From Escherichia phage EscoHU1, in the sequence record NC_133119.1: a stretch of 64,000 bases of DNA, one strand, 5' to 3'. The notes under the pieces were generated by a model. That model made no database searches and was not told where the DNA came from. It saw only the letters and a list, made by a program, of their open reading frames with translations. Shown piece after piece: positions 50,904-57,441 of this stretch; the stretch's first letter is position 1; each line of letters opens with the position of its first letter. A program made the position numbers and the translations under genes.

Positions 50904-52685
50904 TTAGGTTAGGCGTTGAACTGTTACACGTAGTCTTGGTAAGAAGATAGCAGCTGCTTCTGCAGCATGAATGATAACACCCAACTCAACATTACCATTA
51001 CCAAGGTTTTTTACTGTATAAATATACCCATTTCTACGAAAGGCCATCTCATCAGGCCTACTAGCCCACGTTTGGGTATAACTGTAGGAAGTTGTACTAT
51101 GATATGGTACTAGATATCCAGGAGGCAGGGTAAGAATCTGATGGAATACACCATCACCAGCTGTATAACTTTGTTGACGTCTACCTTGTACCTGCCAAGC
51201 ACTACCACCATAAGTACGTACAGGCATACCAGCAGTATTAAGATTACCCATAATAACTTCAGTAGTTAATATAACAGTAGAGTGAGCATTTGGTAATCCC
51301 AACCAAACTGTAGCCAAAGGTGTGTAGAAGTCACCAGCACCAGGGTAGGATGGAGTTATATCGTCCCCTACATAAGTACTTGCAACGTTGCCTGGGAATA
51401 ACCTGAGTGGTACAGTACTAGGACTCCACACAGGTCCATGTTCATTACCAATGGAGTTGGTATTAGTATCTACATACCATTGTTTACCTACACCAAATTT
51501 ATATAGGCTAATTTGAGAAGCTGCACCCCCATAGTTAACGGGTGACCACAACCCACCGTTACTAGAGCCAATAAATTCACATCGTGCAGTATTATCACCG
51601 AAAACTCCGGTATACGCGGCGTTATTACCAACATACTCCATATCAGGGCGATAGCCTAAGTTTCCGAAAGCATTCTGGTTAATAAATTTATAGCCTGTAT
51701 TTGGTAAACTAACACCTTTAATAGTAAAGTTAGATGGAGATATTAGGATATCTGAACCGGTAAATGGATTACCAGAAACCCCCATACTACCATTAGAATA
51801 GCGCAGATTTAGCACATACCAAATAACCTTAGTTGGAGTAACGTTATACCAGTCCTGTACATATACCTTTCTAGCAGACTGAGCAGCCATATTAGAAGTA
51901 GAACCTCTACAAACATATATTTTTTCTGGATATGCAGGAGATTGGTAAAGAACGTTTACGTTATCTGGTAGTACGCCTTTCTTACCTGCAAAGCCACGAA
52001 TATTGGAACTACAAACGTAAAACCAATCATGGCCTCTACCAGCAGAACCAACAGGCGCTTGCCAGTTAGGTTCCCAATAATCGGCGTTACCACCATCTAT
52101 AGGAACTGTAGATACGCCCGTTGGAAAGCCCATTAATCCCCAGGCTCTGGAAATAGCTTCCCCTGCAGAAACACCACCAGGTCTAAAGATCTGGAAACCG
52201 GAAGATTGTAGTAAAGTACCCCCAGTTCCTTGCCTAGCAATAGATTCCTCATGACCCAGGCTACCATTATAAATATAAGTACCGTGAGCTAAACTATCAC
52301 CGATTGCAAAAGCAGATGTTATAGCCAGTTCAGCACCAGCACGTGGTTGATCTTCGAAGAATGTTAAGAACTGGCCAACCTGAGATTGTGTACCATTCAG
52401 AAATCCACGATGAGTACCGTTAATCTCAATAGCAGTTAATATAACTCTACCAGGATCATTGGATTTAATGTTTATAATATCCCAAGGCATCTGAGTAACA
52501 AAATACCCATTGCCTGCATCACCTAGAGCGGCCTCGTAAGTCCCATCAACCAGGACGAAAGGCATATCTGAGTGAAAGATACTATTAGTATTTGGAGAGT
52601 AGTGTTCACCAGTATCACCACCATTAGCAGCGTTTAGAGATAATACAGTTTTACCATCACTAAATTTTCCTGCGAAAAAACTCAT
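50904..52685 (-). CDS. receptor-binding protein (T5 pb5-like)
   Basis: 593 aa; N-terminal MSFFAGKF...GGDT; Gly/Asn-rich; adjacent divergent lipoprotein gene as for T5 oad/llp. Confidence 0.7.
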
Positions 52686-52710
52686 ACAATCTCCTTCTTT
52701 AAAAATGTAT

Positions 52711-52739
52711 TTGCTTAGATCCCTCTATTTTGCTATAAT
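52711..52739 (+). promoter_or_regulatory. sigma70-type early promoter (TTGCTT-17-TATAAT) for lipoprotein gene
   Basis: -35 52711-52716, -10 52734-52739, leader TTTATAAATTAAACAGAGGAACG. Confidence 0.65.
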
Positions 52740-52768
52740 ATATTTATAAATTAAACAGAGGAACGATT

Positions 52769-53035
52769 ATGAAAAAGTTACTAGCTATCGTAGTTGCAGC
52801 AGTAGTGTTGACGGGTTGTGTACCAGCTCCCGAGACATTTTGTAAGGCATATGTGAAGTCTTATGGTCATGTTGGTGAAGAACACTATGCTTTAGATATT
52901 CGAGAAGCACGTACTGTGGGCTACCGATTCCCTAAAACTCAGTTACGCACTAAGTTTGGGTGGTGGGATTTGTCACAGTTTGATCTCAAATATGGCGATT
53001 GCAAATTTAAATTAGAACAATCTGGTCACTTGTAA
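52769..53035 (+). CDS. llp: lipoprotein (T5 Llp-like, receptor-blocking)
   Basis: 88 aa; signal peptide with lipobox LTGC; divergent from receptor-binding protein gene. Confidence 0.7.
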   Translation: MKKLLAIVVAAVVLTGCVPAPETFCKAYVKSYGHVGEEHYALDIREARTVGYRFPKTQLRTKFGWWDLSQFDLKYGDCKFKLEQSGHL

Positions 53036-53109
53036 TTAGTATAAAGTAAAAAGATCTCGAAGTAAACAAAAATTTTTATTTCTGGGATGAGGTACAGGTA
53101 GCAAACACA

Positions 53110-53424
53110 ATGCAAGATGAAGAAAAGTCCTTTCAGGAACCTGTTAACTTTGAAATAGATCCCAGGACTAAAGCAATACATGATGCAATTAACGAAATCA
53201 TTCAAGACGTCATAGAAGATACAATAGAAGACGTGATGGGAACATCCTTCTTAATAGAAGAATCCGGCTTCGATGAAGTAATGGATCTTATCGGGACAGT
53301 CATAATGGTTCGTGCAATTGCTAGGATATTCCAAATACCAGGACTACAGGAGAAGCAAAGAGATGTCAGACGACAACAGAAGAAAGAACAGACGCGGGGA
53401 AGTGTACGAAAGTTGGATAAATAG
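53110..53424 (+). CDS. hypothetical acidic protein
   Basis: 104 aa ORF; acidic N-terminal half. Confidence 0.4.
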   Translation: MQDEEKSFQEPVNFEIDPRTKAIHDAINEIIQDVIEDTIEDVMGTSFLIEESGFDEVMDLIGTVIMVRAIARIFQIPGLQEKQRDVRRQQKKEQTRGSVRKLDK

Positions 53425-53497
53425 TTTCGGATTCGGGACTGTGTTATTCTTTATCTTTGTACTCTTTTGGTTAGCAGCTATGGCGGGGTGGTTATAA
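53363..53497 (+). CDS. small membrane peptide
   Basis: 44 aa; AGGAG RBS 53349-53353; hydrophobic C-terminal helix; stop overlaps next ATG (TAATG). Confidence 0.35.
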   Translation: MSDDNRRKNRRGEVYESWINSFGFGTVLFFIFVLFWLAAMAGWL

Positions 53498-53601
53498 TGG
53501 AAGTATTAATTATTGCTTTACTAGTTGTGGTAATTATCGGACAGTGCATTCTAGATAACCACTTAGCTCGTATAGAACGTAAGCTGCGGGGAGACAAATA
53601 A
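53497..53601 (+). CDS. small membrane peptide
   Basis: 34 aa MEVLIIALLVVVIIGQ...; RBS GGGGTGG; TAATG overlaps at both ends; not in ORF track (<60 aa). Confidence 0.35.
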   Translation: MEVLIIALLVVVIIGQCILDNHLARIERKLRGDK

Positions 53602-53795
53602 TGGATTGGCTAGGACTTATTACACTTGTAGTATGGCTTATCTGGATTGTTGGATATATGACGTCACATCGTAATCGTATACAGCGGCTAGAGGATAAAG
53701 TCACCCAAATGAATATTAATATGGATAAGTTACTGGACTCCCAACGTAATGATCGGGCACGTATTCACCAACTTGAGAGGGAATTAGATGTTTAG
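53601..53795 (+). CDS. small membrane protein with charged C-terminal helix
   Basis: 64 aa; N-terminal helix LGLITLVVWLIWIVGY; RBS GCGGGGAG. Confidence 0.45.
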   Translation: MDWLGLITLVVWLIWIVGYMTSHRNRIQRLEDKVTQMNINMDKLLDSQRNDRARIHQLERELDV

Positions 53796-54033
53796 CTTTG
53801 TAGCTATCTTCATTATCGGGGTACTTGCGGGAATCTTCGGAACACTCGGGGCTATTAATAAGCATCGTGAATATGTTGCGGGAGTATCGCGGGAGCTTTC
53901 GGAAAGGGAGCGGAGGTTTGCGGAGAAACGGGAGGAGTTTGAGCGAGAGTGGTCGGATGGATCTCGGGCGTCGCGGAGGAGATTTCGTATGTCAGAATCG
54001 GGAGATAAGCCAGTAGACCGGTGTTCCTCCTAA
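53788..54033 (+). CDS. small membrane protein
   Basis: 81 aa; N-terminal helix FVAIFIIGVLAGIFGTLGAI; RBS GAGAGGGA. Confidence 0.45.
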   Translation: MFSFVAIFIIGVLAGIFGTLGAINKHREYVAGVSRELSERERRFAEKREEFEREWSDGSRASRRRFRMSESGDKPVDRCSS

Positions 54034-54147
54034 GTTAGCGCTAATTACCAATTCTCGAAATCTCATAAGATTACACATGAAGGCGTGCCCAGAGGTTCCC
54101 TAGATGAGAATGAGTCTCATTACCGCCCCGGTACTTAGCAAGCTAAT

Positions 54148-54191
54148 AGTCACACCATGTTATCATTACACAGTGTGACTATTTTATTTTT
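54148..54191 (+). terminator. terminator-like hairpin between convergent genes
   Basis: AGTCACAC ... GTGTGACT (8-bp stem, 17-nt loop) followed by ATTTTATTTTT. Confidence 0.45.
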
Positions 54192-54196
54192 AATTG

Positions 54197-54931
54197 TTAG
54201 GCAACTTTTAATTTATCAATGAATTGTTGCGGCGTGGTACTATATTCCGCGCGTTCTTCCTCGGTCATACCTTCCCAACACATTTTTAAACGTTCGGCTA
54301 GGAATTGATAATCGTTATCATCATCTAACGATTCATCAATAAAGGTTTCACCGATCAATGTTACCCCGATTGATAGGATATCGTTAACGGCTTGAGCGTC
54401 CAGCGTTTTAAATCCAGCATTTGCCGCCGCCGATAATACACCTTTATGATCATCAATCATTGTAAAATCAGCGTTCGGGTATAGCTGTTTAAACAGTTCA
54501 AAGTAATAAGATTTATATACAGCGTCTTTGCTGTGGTATATTTCGCTAACCTTATCCGCATCAAAGTATTTATGCAAAGTATCGCGGGAAAATACGCGAA
54601 TATTACTATTTCCGCGCCCTCTTAGACTTTGTTTACGCAAGAAATAATAATCAGATTTACCCATTAAGCGAGCGGTACAAATAAGGTTTAAGGTATTGGG
54701 ATCATTCATACATTGGCGCATATATTCAACCAATGGTAATAAGGAATCCTGCATAATTAATTCATGTTTGCAGGCTTCGCGGGAATACTTAACTAAATCT
54801 AAATTCCCGTTATCGTCAAAGCAAGGCGCTACACGATGGAAAGAATTTATAATCGTTCCGTCTAAATCCCAAATCATAACGCGGGAAATATGCGGGAAAG
54901 TGTGGGTAATATTCATGTTGACTTGATTCAT
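54197..54931 (-). CDS. dmp: HAD-family 5'-deoxyribonucleotidase (T5 Dmp-like)
   Basis: 244 aa; HAD motif I MIWDLDGTI; position next to A1-like gene. Confidence 0.7.
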   Translation of the reverse strand: MNQVNMNITHTFPHISRVMIWDLDGTIINSFHRVAPCFDDNGNLDLVKYSREACKHELIMQDSLLPLVEYMRQCMNDPNTLNLICTARLMGKSDYYFLRKQSLRGRGNSNIRVFSRDTLHKYFDADKVSEIYHSKDAVYKSYYFELFKQLYPNADFTMIDDHKGVLSAAANAGFKTLDAQAVNDILSIGVTLIGETFIDESLDDDNDYQFLAERLKMCWEGMTEEERAEYSTTPQQFIDKLKVA

Positions 54932-55776: not shown

Positions 55777-57441
55777 TTATGCAAAGAATTTACCGTTTTT
55801 GAAATCAATCAAAGTACGTTGCCCGTTTGCATAGGTAATTAAATGCGTTTGCGTCCAGCTTGACGCGCCCACGTTGTAACCCATATCAAGCGACCCCGCC
55901 ACGCCAGCGGTATAAACGCCGCCGTAAATGCTAGCCGTATGAGTATGACCAGTGTTAAGGCGTCCAAGTTTCTTAAACTGCTTAGGATTGCCCCGACTGC
56001 CGTTAATGCCATTGTGACCATGTACGCCGCACTCAATGCCAGCGATTTTAAATGACTGGTCAGTAGTCAGGAAAATAGCGTTAAATTCGCAACCTGCAAC
56101 GTTTCTAAGCGCGTAATCTAGCACGTTAAAGGTATCATCCTTTTCAGCAATAGCGGCGTAAATCGCAGCGTTTAGACGGTGATACAATTCCGCGTTTGCG
56201 GGATCGTCTTTAATGTTAGCGTTACGATCATCAAGCCAGCGTGAAAGAGCTAAATCATGGTTAGATTCCACAATGATTGTTTGAGAGAAATCACGCTCCA
56301 TTGATTCTAATACGCGTCCAGTATCGATAAGATCATCAATAACTTTATCACGTCCTGCGGCGTACTGTTTAGCAAGGAATACACCACTAGCGCGGTTGTG
56401 ATGGTTGCGCGATGTAAAATCATGCACATCATGAATAAACTGATATTTAGGCTTGAGAATATCAAGCAAGCTGTTTTCACTAGCCCATGATGCAACGGCG
56501 CAATCATCATCTAATTTTTCGGCGTGAATATCGCCATATTGCAAGCCTAGAACATGATCGGACGTTTTATAACATCCGGTAGGAGTAGCGCAAACATTCA
56601 AATCATAGAACATTCCGCTTTCATCCATTGTTTCAAGCTGGCGAACGAAAAATTCTCCGTCGTCGTCGAACTCCACCAGCAAAGCGCCGAAATTATGCAG
56701 AGCCTCAGCTTTTTGACCTGCTTTCTGCTGAATGTAGTTTTTAAGCGTAGCCGTTCCGGTTGAATACATACGGCGCACTACTTCACCTTTTAACGCTGGC
56801 ACACTTTCAGCGGTGATTTTAGCGTGACCTATTGCCAGCCCTTCAATATTTAAAGCCGTGGCGGTTTCTGCGAATCCTGAAAGCGGATAATCTGCCGTTG
56901 GTAAAACGTTAATTTCAGCCATGAAAGCAAAGCGGCGGTTATTCAGGAAAACATTTTTATCGCAGATATATTTATCAAATGCGGGATCGTATTTGATTCC
57001 TTCTGCACCTTCCCCGTTCTGGAATCCATTTTTATTATAAATGAATTTACTAATCAGCAATTCAGCACCGATATATTCAGCAAATTTTTCCAGACTTGCT
57101 AAAAAGTTTTTATGCGGGAAAGTATTATTTTGAATCGACGTTAGAATAAAACGGCGACCGGATTTAACTTCCCATTGTTCAACGGTACTAGAAACAATTC
57201 CCGCCGCTTCGGGGCGATCATCATTTTTAATCGCCTTTTCAGCTTTTGCCGCTTTCGGTTTCGCTGGCTTGTTTGCTTCCAGCCAATCACAAATCGCGGT
57301 TGAATGTTTCGGCGTATCATAAACAGCTTTTGAAATATCGTCGCAAACTTCCAATTTAGTAGCGCGTAAACGCTTACCGTAGAAATTAAAATCAGCGGCC
57401 ATTTTCAAAATTTGAGCTTGTTTTTCTGCGGAAATATTCAT
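55777..57441 (-). CDS. A1: A1-like pre-early protein (metallophosphoesterase-type)
   Basis: 554 aa; calcineurin-like phosphoesterase motifs (GDIHAE, GNHD, GHTHTAS); size matches T5 A1. Confidence 0.8.
   Translation of the reverse strand: MNISAEKQAQILKMAADFNFYGKRLRATKLEVCDDISKAVYDTPKHSTAICDWLEANKPAKPKAAKAEKAIKNDDRPEAAGIVSSTVEQWEVKSGRRFILTSIQNNTFPHKNFLASLEKFAEYIGAELLISKFIYNKNGFQNGEGAEGIKYDPAFDKYICDKNVFLNNRRFAFMAEINVLPTADYPLSGFAETATALNIEGLAIGHAKITAESVPALKGEVVRRMYSTGTATLKNYIQQKAGQKAEALHNFGALLVEFDDDGEFFVRQLETMDESGMFYDLNVCATPTGCYKTSDHVLGLQYGDIHAEKLDDDCAVASWASENSLLDILKPKYQFIHDVHDFTSRNHHNRASGVFLAKQYAAGRDKVIDDLIDTGRVLESMERDFSQTIIVESNHDLALSRWLDDRNANIKDDPANAELYHRLNAAIYAAIAEKDDTFNVLDYALRNVAGCEFNAIFLTTDQSFKIAGIECGVHGHNGINGSRGNPKQFKKLGRLNTGHTHTASIYGGVYTAGVAGSLDMGYNVGASSWTQTHLITYANGQRTLIDFKNGKFFA

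Follow-up and report, generated by a model that had tools for sequence, protein, structure and literature searches.

The llp-distal end of the EscoHU1 genome

The window, a stretch of 64,000 nucleotides from the genome of Escherichia phage EscoHU1 (NC_133119.1), belongs to a T5-like phage (Epseptimavirus) and shares 98.3% DNA identity with Escherichia phage GreteKellenberger (Bas26). Four short open reading frames, designated here ORF1 to ORF4, were found where the unique part of the genome ends, in the same orientation as llp. The features of this region are the following:

52711–52739, + strand: predicted sigma-70 promoter of the llp unit, read from the sequence as TTGCTT (52711–52716), a 17-nt spacer and TGcTATAAT (-10 hexamer 52734–52739)
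52769–53035, + strand: Llp/Cor-type receptor-blocking lipoprotein gene (llp), 88 aa, lipobox LTGC; PHROG 1119 'Cor superinfection exclusion protein', E 7.6e-23
53110–53424, + strand: acidic ORF of 104 aa, between llp and ORF1; PHROG 16810
53363–53497, + strand: ORF1, 44 aa, orthologue of T5.159; PHROG 8596, E 2.4e-28
53497–53601, + strand: ORF2, 34 aa, orthologue of T5.160; PHROG 6369, E 1.8e-22
53601–53795, + strand: ORF3, 64 aa, counterpart of T5.161; PHROG 5851, E 1.6e-35
53788–54033, + strand: ORF4, 81 aa, orthologue of T5.162; PHROG 6447 'membrane protein', E 3.4e-46
54037–54085, no strand assigned: conserved non-coding block, reaching up to the point where the right terminal repeat is predicted to begin
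54147–54191, + strand: intrinsic-terminator-like hairpin, TAGTCACAC...GTGTGACTA, then TTTTATTTTT, inside the terminal repeat

The lengths and coordinates of the four ORFs agreed with those given in an earlier sequence-only reading of this DNA. In a PHROG profile search each ORF matched its own family over the whole profile, with E values from 1e-22 to 1e-46. These ORFs are almost certainly the orthologues of T5.159, T5.160, T5.161 and T5.162, and genuine genes whose very small products cross the inner membrane once. The sequence-only reading had treated them as unannotated small peptides, which was mistaken: the T5 reference genome carries all four (NC_005859, 110826–111490), each with the remark 'contains single transmembrane domain', and the GenBank record of T5 llp (X75922) already shows an 'orf1'. 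All four are also annotated in Bas26, and many GenBank records of relatives annotate only part of the set. The cluster is thus already known, from the T5 reference annotation, Bas26, the PHROG families and an earlier genome-wide knock-down screen that targeted it.

The T5 genes resemble ORF1–4 in their order, their stop/start overlaps, their single transmembrane helix and their sizes (42–45, 34–35, 63–64 and 81 aa), as well as in their position 3' of oad/llp and their end some 40–50 nt short of the right terminal repeat, which in T5 begins 42 nt past the T5.162 stop. Amino-acid identity over the aligned parts was 82%, 83%, 40% and 72% to T5.159, T5.160, T5.161 and T5.162, respectively. The two phages differ in that ORF3 of EscoHU1 is the Epseptimavirus allele, one of two allelic types with 40–44% identity between them, T5.161 being of the other; in that ORF4 ends in another 14-residue C-terminal tail; and in that T5 does not have the 104-aa ORF. 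In the window, T5, Bas26, Bas33 and 22 IMG/VR loci alike, the genes share the strand of llp and have the RBP/llp module on one side and the dmp end of the terminal repeat on the other.

The product of llp carries the signal peptide MKKLLAIVVAAVVLTGC, and its gene is divergent from the gene of a 593-aa RBP. Its lipobox signal peptide, its family match and its place beside the RBP gene agree with the Llp/Cor family, and its Bas26 counterpart is annotated as a superinfection exclusion protein. The cluster had been described as sitting next to this lipoprotein gene, which holds for the neighborhood but not for direct adjacency, as the 104-aa ORF stands between llp and ORF1 and overlaps ORF1 with its last 62 nt in another frame. 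That ORF is a variable accessory gene, intact in four loci (in one of them with 108 aa and an altered C-terminus), broken in four others and absent from T5-type phages.

A promoter is annotated in T5 at the spot equivalent to the one listed before llp, which was missed by the consensus promoter scan because its -35 hexamer matches at only three of six positions. It is probably the promoter of the entire stretch from llp to ORF4, and no convincing terminator was detected between llp and ORF1. Downstream, the window was aligned with Pantoea phage AAS21, with the right-repeat junction of T5 and with base 1 of the T5 left repeat, which placed the first base of the T5 repeat at about 54086. The hairpin inside the repeat is followed by a U-run, is separated by 6 nt from dmp, a convergent gene, and is kept in T5 and in AAS21; the fold of 54030–54200 had an energy of -42.3 kcal/mol (z = -3.7). 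This hairpin is likely the end of the llp-to-ORF4 transcript. Judged from these signals, ORF1–4 would probably form the distal part of one early unit, running from the strong llp sigma-70 promoter to the hairpin inside the right terminal repeat. This is supported by AAS21, which has no llp and where TTGTCA-N17-TATAAT stands immediately 5' of the ORF1 homologue. A promoter-like site with 10 of 12 matches inside the cluster (53471–53498) speaks against a single llp-to-ORF4 transcript.

Since such a unit lies in the last unique DNA, it would be expressible only after second-step transfer. In Bas33, the homologues bas33_0187–0191 (homology verified by translation) had reads at 20 min and none when infection was arrested after first-step transfer (PMC13250531, Dataset S1). 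The per-gene TPM values alternate implausibly (about 1, 150, 1, 435 and 18), and therefore only transcription at the level of the region, strand aside, was concluded from these data.

Four small membrane proteins with conserved frames and overlaps

Each protein contained one hydrophobic stretch of 17–24 residues (Kyte-Doolittle mean over 17 residues, 2.27–3.23), as in the T5 annotation. Together with the conserved overlaps and the llp neighborhood, this supported the earlier description of translationally coupled, small single-helix membrane proteins. The further statement that a helix is followed by a charged segment was right for ORF2, ORF3 and ORF4 but not for ORF1, where the order is reversed: a basic N-terminus with the charged segment MSDDNRRKNRRGEVYES and the invariant motif RGEVYESWINSFGFGT precedes a membrane helix at the C-terminus (residues 21–44). 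A longer, GTG-started version of ORF1 (53312, 61 aa) was rejected, since the distant homologues all have the short start and no upstream extension.

In ORF2 an N-terminal helix is followed by the invariant motif GQCxLDNHLAxIE and a basic tail. ORF3 has an N-terminal helix, without positive charge at the N-terminus, and about 40 residues of heptad-like charged helix with a conserved QxERELDV at the end. The N-terminal helix of ORF4 runs into a long helix rich in Glu, Arg and Lys, with the invariant motifs AINKHRxY and EFEREWxDGSRASR, and is followed by the 14-residue tail, which exists in alternative versions among relatives; an AlphaFold2 model gave one helix over residues 2–71 (mean pLDDT 71.5). 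A comparison of ORF2 with ORF3 for paralogy gave a hhalign probability of 39%. From the distribution of charges, ORF1 would be anchored by its C-terminus, with its short, basic and highly conserved N-terminal motif in the cytoplasm, and ORF2–4 would be anchored by their N-termini, with their charged helices also cytoplasmic.

The junctions consist of TAATG (1 nt) for both ORF1/ORF2 and ORF2/ORF3, and of an 8-nt overlap, ATGTTTAG, for ORF3/ORF4. Of the TAATG and ATGA links proposed previously, the former was thus found at the first two junctions and the latter at none. A Shine-Dalgarno-like purine-rich motif precedes each of the four starts, and ribosomes probably pass from ORF to ORF through these 1-, 1- and 8-nt stop/start overlaps. 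Across a set of 27 related loci, used for the conservation of frames and overlaps, the overlap was kept at -1 nt for ORF1/2 in 24, at -1 nt for ORF2/3 in 18 and at -8 nt for ORF3/4 in 18; moreover, a -1 nt overlap was again seen in all eight loci lacking ORF3. The NG86 dN/dS ratios were 0.14, 0.18, 0.48 and 0.37 for ORF1 to ORF4. This purifying selection (dN/dS 0.14–0.48) indicates that they are genes and not chance ORFs, and the conserved pattern of ORFs, frames and overlaps is far beyond chance.

The opposite view, that the DNA before the terminal repeat is a non-coding spacer and ORF1–4 in it are chance frames or remnants without function, could draw on their very short length, with two of them under the usual gene-calling cut-offs, on the partial annotation in many records and on the lack of a knock-down phenotype. 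It is extremely improbable: the ratios are well below 1 in the annotated frames, the start/stop overlaps persist even after gene loss, the protein motifs stay unchanged even in AAS21, where identity falls to 49%, and a Rfam scan of 52600–54300 returned no RNA family. The comparative data already refute it.

The four genes are not retained alike among T5-like phages. Of about 447 T5-like records, 446 gave a tblastn match to ORF1, among them AAS21 and phages without llp, and ORF1 is one of the most widely kept small genes in the T5-like phages that infect enterobacteria. ORF3 was absent from 8 of the 27 loci and ORF2 from one, an additional 51-aa paralogue of ORF2 exists in some phages (hhalign probability 94%), and the ORF2–4 chain is variously lost, duplicated or, in AAS21 and Klebsiella phages, swapped for unrelated tiny transmembrane ORFs. 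The gene content of this locus changes by gain and loss, by paralogy, by replacement of alleles and by insertion of homing endonucleases. Within the cluster, ORF1 is the conserved core and ORF2–4 are accessory. Additionally, ORF1 persists in AAS21 and other relatives that have no llp, and so it has no need of Llp; this observation speaks against a direct functional tie of ORF1–4 to Llp. Homologues outside T5-like phages were not found, either for ORF1, ORF3 and ORF4 among 5.8 billion proteins or with an ORF1 profile among 1.84 billion representatives; the sole match from elsewhere was a repetitive eukaryote-like protein and was considered spurious.

Family searches and knock-down data

Nothing above threshold was obtained for ORF1–4 in Pfam, NCBIfam or PADLOC, and the ORF3 profile, when run against PDB sequences, gave only coiled-coil noise. 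Homology to characterized exclusion, holin, spanin or defence proteins was not detected in the PHROG, Pfam, NCBIfam, PADLOC and PDB searches, and exclusion families of the T4 Imm/Sp, P22 SieA and HK97 gp15 type were absent from the PHROG, Pfam, NCBIfam and PADLOC matches. A likeness of ORF1 to the MotB plug (E 0.049) was discarded as compositional and below threshold. ORF3 resembles PspB (PF06667/TIGR02976) in size and architecture, with one helix at the N-terminus and then a short cytoplasmic one of the leucine-zipper-like kind, and matched it weakly (E 0.0035 in Pfam and 0.006 in NCBIfam). This assignment was rejected, as the scores stayed well short of the curated gathering thresholds (17.8 vs. 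25.6 bits in Pfam; 12.5 vs. 51.7 and 16.9 vs. 90 bits in a second search); the hhalign probability was only 23%, over 23 C-terminal residues.

Regarding the phenotype, all four genes were scored 'Not Fit', that is, without fitness cost on knock-down, in a CRISPRi-ART screen of T5 (PMC11879866, source data). This negative result is weak, because the late-region genes T5.151, T5.152 and T5.154 were 'Not Fit' too. T5.159–T5.162 appear to be dispensable in the laboratory. They are unmentioned in the main texts found, and papers on T5 Llp, BF23 and the T5 pre-early genes leave them out. The set of HIDEN-SEQ has no T5-like phage, and no proteomic or ribosome-profiling record of the four proteins was found in the literature, the Bas33 dataset being RNA-seq.

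Possible roles of the cluster in the infected cell

The sequence-only reading had suggested superinfection exclusion, DNA-injection control or envelope remodelling, and a role in superinfection exclusion or in conditioning of the envelope is plausible by analogy. An envelope function is suggested only by context, as the genes lie in the RBP/llp module and point the same way as a known exclusion gene, and by analogy to small membrane proteins that serve exclusion in other phages. The virulent phage T4 has Imm and Sp, small superinfection-exclusion proteins of the inner membrane that are made early, non-essential in the laboratory and present alongside other exclusion functions; their likeness to ORF1–4 is by analogy only, with no sequence or profile similarity detected. 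Tentatively, ORF1–4 may condition the envelope of the infected cell as non-essential accessory factors. They could be the inner-membrane counterpart of the action of Llp at the outer membrane, and might, for example, hinder DNA entry or membrane damage by T5-like phages arriving later. ORF1 would then be a receptor-independent core and ORF2–4 a fast-evolving, exchangeable set; the retention of ORF1 across phages of differing RBP/llp types fits a receptor-independent role. The shared strand with llp and the absence of a convincing terminator after it, the timing in Bas33 and the status as non-essential accessory genes are consistent with the proposals of the sequence-only reading.

A bolder version of the same idea, rather unlikely in our judgement, is that ORF1 (the T5.159 family) might be a universal, receptor-independent inner-membrane immunity factor which would keep the conserved tape-measure/ejection proteins of later-arriving relatives from forming a channel or passing DNA, with ORF2–4 as rapidly evolving specificity or counter-defence modules.

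The main competitor of the envelope-conditioning reading is that ORF1–4 bind or modulate host inner-membrane proteins (transporters, proteases, or sensors of abortive infection or defence) for host takeover or counter-defence and not for exclusion, which is conceivable though doubtful. Single-pass proteins of 30–80 residues, of the AcrZ, MgrB, KdpF and CydX type, act by binding larger membrane proteins; they have no homology to ORF1–4, which are phage-encoded and confined to T5-like phages. The invariant juxtamembrane motifs (RGEVYESWINSFGFGT in ORF1, and those of ORF2 and ORF4 given above) suggest specific protein contacts, fast gene turnover at the locus is typical of arms-race accessory loci, and the absence of a fitness effect on laboratory K-12 is what conditionally useful genes would be expected to give. 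However, there is no likeness to known anti-defence or defence families (none in PADLOC and only sub-threshold matches in Pfam and NCBIfam), and the evidence does not set this reading apart from exclusion.

Two further readings concern lysis. The T5 hol gene is reported to be closely homologous to T4 gpt (PMC12894885). ORF1–4 could regulate when lysis occurs, acting on this class III holin as antiholin-like or holin-accessory partners; in T4 that holin is under the control of the small proteins RI and RIII. ORF3 gave weak, sub-threshold matches to a holin family (PHROG 1296, E 0.023) and to the Rz-like PHROGs 214, 7584 and 739 (E 0.012–0.15). These matches are not significant and reflect a composition of transmembrane helix plus coiled coil; ORF3 is the only one of the four to match a holin family, it is absent in about 30% of relatives, and no similarity to the RI or RIII families was found in PHROGs or Pfam. 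Small bitopic proteins are common lysis regulators, which counts for a lysis role, but the neighbors here are RBP, llp and dmp, with no lysis gene nearby, and the T5 holin and endolysin genes lie in the early region outside the window, far from the cluster. A role in lysis timing is decidedly unlikely. The other reading pairs ORF3 with the Llp lipoprotein as a two-component, spanin-like periplasmic bridge, as might be suggested by the outer-membrane lipoprotein gene upstream, the N-terminal transmembrane helix plus coiled coil of ORF3 and its Rz-like matches. Against it, the part of ORF3 outside the membrane, about 40 residues, is too short for the periplasm (a typical i-spanin has >100); the lack of positive charge at its N-terminus argues against the N-in/C-out topology of an i-spanin, its best Rz-like match reached only E 0.012, and it was lost in 8 of 27 relatives. 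Moreover, Llp has an established, structure-backed function in blocking FhuA (PMC9586334), and T5 is not in the list of spanin-less phages (PMC6139136). This pairing is effectively refuted, its probability being close to nil.

As a finding the cluster adds little. If ORF1–4 are an inner-membrane exclusion or counter-defence module, they would complete the view of how T5-like phages protect the infected cell beyond Llp, and this would matter for combining such phages in therapeutic or biocontrol cocktails. If the immunity role of ORF1 were true, the final kilobase of unique DNA in T5-like genomes would be a dedicated 'infected-cell envelope protection' island, of which Llp would be only the outer-membrane arm.

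Gene order and reading frames before the right terminal repeat

The region was 98.3% identical over 1551 bases to that of Bas26 (Escherichia phage GreteKellenberger; Demerecviridae, Markadamsvirinae, Epseptimavirus), and 355 T5-like phage records matched it at the megablast level. The terminase genes lie before the receptor-binding tail protein (RBP) gene, from which the order is as follows:

50904-52685, minus strand, RBP gene
52711-52739, plus strand, predicted sigma-70 promoter preceding llp, near-consensus with an extended -10 (TTGCTT, 17 nt, TGcTATAAT)
52769-53035, plus strand, Llp/Cor-type lipoprotein (llp; 88 aa), divergent from the RBP gene
53110-53424, plus strand, acidic 104-aa ORF, followed by ORF1-4
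53363-53497, plus strand, ORF1 (44 aa)
53497-53601, plus strand, ORF2 (34 aa)
53601-53795, plus strand, ORF3 (64 aa)
53788-54033, plus strand, ORF4 (81 aa), with a variable tail in its last 14 codons (53989-54033; same place in the compared loci L005-L027)
54037-54191, conserved non-coding block and hairpin (also L005 3992-4160 and L028 2515-2650)
54147-54181, 3' of ORF4, stable hairpin followed by TTTTATTTTT, terminator-like by RNA folding
54197-54931, minus strand, dmp
between dmp and A1, minus strand, two small genes
55777-57441, minus strand, A1

Genes dmp to A1 make up the left part of the terminal repeat of T5. The window therefore ends in the right terminal repeat, and ORF1-4 sit in the last unique DNA as the last genes of that part of the genome. 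They are the already known and annotated, function-unknown genes T5.159-T5.162, here in an Epseptimavirus. In the T5 reference genome (NC_005859), T5.159 (110826-110954), T5.160 (110954-111061), T5.161 (111058-111252) and T5.162 (111245-111490) each carry the note "contains single transmembrane domain", and the group begins directly 3' of llp and stops 42 nt short of the right terminal repeat. In X75922, the GenBank record of T5 llp, the T5.159 sequence already bears the label "orf1", and in the Bas26 record all four ORFs and the 104-aa ORF are annotated as hypothetical proteins. Each ORF had a full-length PHROG match (8596, 6369, 5851 and 6447 for ORF1 to ORF4; E 1e-22 to 1e-46); these families are either without an assigned function or named "membrane protein".

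The sequence-only reading, which had described a chain of coupled small membrane proteins, was correct in this observation, with two small corrections. Its coordinates and lengths agreed with the sequence, and each product contains a single hydrophobic stretch (17-residue Kyte-Doolittle mean 2.27-3.23). The proposed order of a helix followed by a charged segment applies to ORF2, ORF3 and ORF4, but is reversed in ORF1, whose N-terminus is basic and whose C-terminus is the helix. Likewise, the TAATG overlap of 1 nt was found at ORF1/ORF2 and ORF2/ORF3, but the "ATGA" overlap is absent, the ORF3/ORF4 junction being ATGTTTAG, with an 8-nt overlap. The chain had also been placed next to the lipoprotein gene; instead, the 104-aa ORF intervenes, sharing 62 nt with ORF1 in a different frame. 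A purine-rich motif lies 5-10 nt 5' of every ORF1-4 start. The AlphaFold2 model of ORF4 is one continuous helix (residues 2-71) with a disordered tail (mean pLDDT 71.5).

The 104-aa ORF itself is strongly acidic and belongs to PHROG 16810, of unknown function. Among close relatives, it is intact in L001, L008 (there with a changed C-terminus), L009 and L013 and disrupted by frameshifts in L002, L003, L006 and L007, whereas T5-type phages lack it. Two of these loci, L008 and L009, have no llp, and the ORF lies directly 3' of the RBP gene.

Conservation and turnover of the locus

The comparison took in 27 related loci, from GenBank records together with 22 IMG/VR contigs. The same frame was open for every ORF present, and all-pair dN/dS values (Nei-Gojobori) were 0.14, 0.18, 0.48 and 0.37 for ORF1 to ORF4. 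The -1 nt junction of ORF1/ORF2 was kept in 24 loci, while that of ORF2/ORF3 and the -8 nt junction of ORF3/ORF4 were each found in 18; in all eight loci lacking ORF3, the ORF4 start was again overlapped by one base of the ORF2 stop. Invariant motifs were RGEVYESWINSFGFGT in ORF1, GQCxLDNHLAxIE in ORF2, QxERELDV at the C-terminal end of ORF3, and AINKHRxY and EFEREWxDGSRASRxRFR in ORF4. These data reject chance ORFs, a reading left with almost no probability, and establish ORF1-4 as real genes with a conserved translational-coupling geometry; their products are hydrophobic and single-helix. The Rfam scan of the region gave zero family matches.

Searches of 5.8 billion proteins with ORF4, ORF1 and ORF3 returned matches only among T5-like phage proteins, as did the ORF1 profile against 1.84 billion representatives, besides one spurious match. 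Pfam, NCBIfam and PADLOC gave zero above-threshold matches for the ORFs. The sub-threshold matches of ORF3 (PspB, a coiled-coil DUF, Rz-like PHROGs and holin PHROGs) are a product of its composition, a membrane helix joined to a heptad helix; when profiles were compared directly, PspB reached a probability of only 23%, and the PDB search with ORF3 returned coiled-coil noise only.

By its distribution, ORF1 is the core of the cluster, and ORF2-4 are accessory. It was found by tblastn in 446 phage records, essentially all of the 447 matched by the concatenated query, and it persists in divergent relatives regardless of its surroundings: three unrelated tiny hydrophobic ORFs (39, 22 and 42 aa) follow it in Pantoea phage AAS21 and a soluble 110-aa ORF in Enterobacter phage KKP_3711, while in two metagenomic T5-like contigs a single further tiny TM ORF accompanies it or a 27-aa TM ORF lies on its 5' side. 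ORF2 is absent from one of the 27 loci and ORF3, which has two alleles 40-44% identical, from eight; both are individually dispensable in nature. Some T5-like phages, including Bas33, carry an extra 51-aa ORF between ORF1 and ORF2 (L012/L027 2555-2710; Bas33, L033 2999-3154, bas33_0190), a fifth chain member that keeps the 1-nt overlaps. With an hhalign probability of 94%, it is a paralogue of ORF2 (MEWVIIGIFVLLILLFVGLRVIDTSVTQ...RLSRIETLLEERK); the comparison of ORF3 with ORF2 for distant paralogy gave 39%. ORF4 ends in 14 residues that exist in at least two unrelated, equally long versions, MSESGDKPVDRCSS and EFRPEHRFDDPSMR, with a mosaic distribution, besides two shorter variants. The versions do not track the phylogeny of the remaining protein, suggesting that recombination has taken place close to the terminal-repeat boundary.

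In Klebsiella phage vB_Kpl_K7_rec1 (T5-like; L034 3853-4536), the RBP gene and dmp flank a slot that has neither llp nor an ORF1 homologue. It encodes two different proteins, of 74 and 151 aa, in both of which an N-terminal membrane helix precedes a coiled coil; the larger one has a Ser/Cys-rich tail. These varied contents indicate that the slot from the RBP module to the terminal repeat is consistently occupied by small bitopic membrane proteins, whose turnover is high.

Other insertions and replacements were also observed. Several relatives carry HNH/homing endonuclease genes as insertions at the locus (L007/L008 2200-2781; L033 1881-2420), one just 5' of ORF1, whose N-terminus is shortened to MSKNKRGEVY, and that of Bas33 (bas33_0186) between ORF4 and dmp. 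In a metagenomic T5-like contig (L031 3105-3542), a 145-aa non-lipoprotein ORF replaces llp, and behind it come a hydrophobic 27-aa ORF and the homologue of ORF1.

Transcription, genome end and fitness

The llp promoter has an annotated T5 promoter at the equivalent place. No convincing terminator was found between llp and ORF1 by folding and terminator scan: the spacer 53030-53115 folds weakly (z = -1.55), and the single terminator-like site is within chance expectation. Alignment to the first base of the left terminal repeat of T5 placed the repeat boundary at ~54086, 52 nt past the ORF4 stop, and the putative terminator hairpin therefore lies inside the repeat. In AAS21, which lacks llp, a promoter (TTGTCA-N17-TATAAT) is found directly 5' of the ORF1 homologue. 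The simplest model is therefore a single transcript that would start at the llp promoter and end at the hairpin inside the repeat.

A promoter-like site (TTAGCA, 16 nt, TATAAT; 10/12 matches) was also seen at the ORF1/ORF2 junction (53471-53498, plus strand). It might supply ORF2-4 with some independent transcription, or may be due to chance, since such sites in the region do not exceed shuffled expectation. Additionally, a non-coding block of ~50 nt, GCGCTAAT...CTCGAAAT.TCATAAGATTACACATGAAGG.GTG, ends exactly at the T5 terminal-repeat start, and the hairpin TAGTCACAC...GTGTGACTA lies ~60 nt into the repeat; both are kept from T5 to AAS21. The block could be a recognition or cleavage site generating the left genome end, and the hairpin looks like the terminator of the llp-ORF4 transcript.

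Expression data were available for Bas33 (HildyBeyeler, MZ501074, Tequintavirus), in which translation identified bas33_0191, 0189, 0188 and 0187 as ORF1 to ORF4 and bas33_0190 as the additional ORF2 paralogue. By RNA-seq 20 min after infection, bas33_0187-0191 have reads in untreated infections, with TPM of about 1, 150, 1, 435 and 18 for bas33_0191, 0190, 0189, 0188 and 0187, and 127-219 for llp (bas33_0192); under daunorubicin arrest after first-step transfer, bas33_0187-0191 have next to no reads (0-1 read; PMC13250531, Dataset S1). The alternation between about 1 and 150-450 in adjacent genes of 108-246 nt is probably an artefact of assigning reads across adjacent or overlapping short features, and gene-by-gene values in standard RNA-seq tables are untrustworthy for such tiny genes. 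The conclusion is therefore drawn only for the region as a whole: in Bas33 it is transcribed, only after first-step transfer, and is not pre-early.

In the CRISPRi-ART screen of T5, T5.159-T5.162 were all "Not Fit" (fitness -3.86, -3.55, -4.11 and -3.60, respectively; p 0.24-0.9), as were some late-region genes, T5.151, T5.152 and T5.154 (PMC11879866, source data Fig. 6a). Knock-down thus had no measurable cost on the laboratory host in this one screen, a negative result that is weak because those late-region genes scored likewise.

Possible roles of the membrane-protein cassette

The products of this conserved yet dispensable cassette are probably located in the inner membrane, where charge distribution would place the N-terminus of ORF1 and the C-termini of ORF2-4 on the cytoplasmic side. 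As a tentative guess, they may form an inner-membrane arm of infected-cell protection that complements Llp, its core being ORF1, which would act irrespective of the receptor. The retention of ORF1 across differing RBP and llp types and in llp-less phages fits such a receptor-independent role, and also shows that it does not act through Llp. Only slightly less plausible is that ORF1-4 modulate membrane proteins of the host or serve in counter-defence, a reading favoured by the arms-race-like turnover of the locus and by the lack of a phenotype on K-12. Regulation of lysis timing through the T4-t-like T5 holin seems unlikely. A spanin-like pair of ORF3 and Llp is rejected as scarcely credible, given the length, charge topology and gene loss of ORF3, the known function of Llp, and the fact that T5 is not listed among spanin-less phages.
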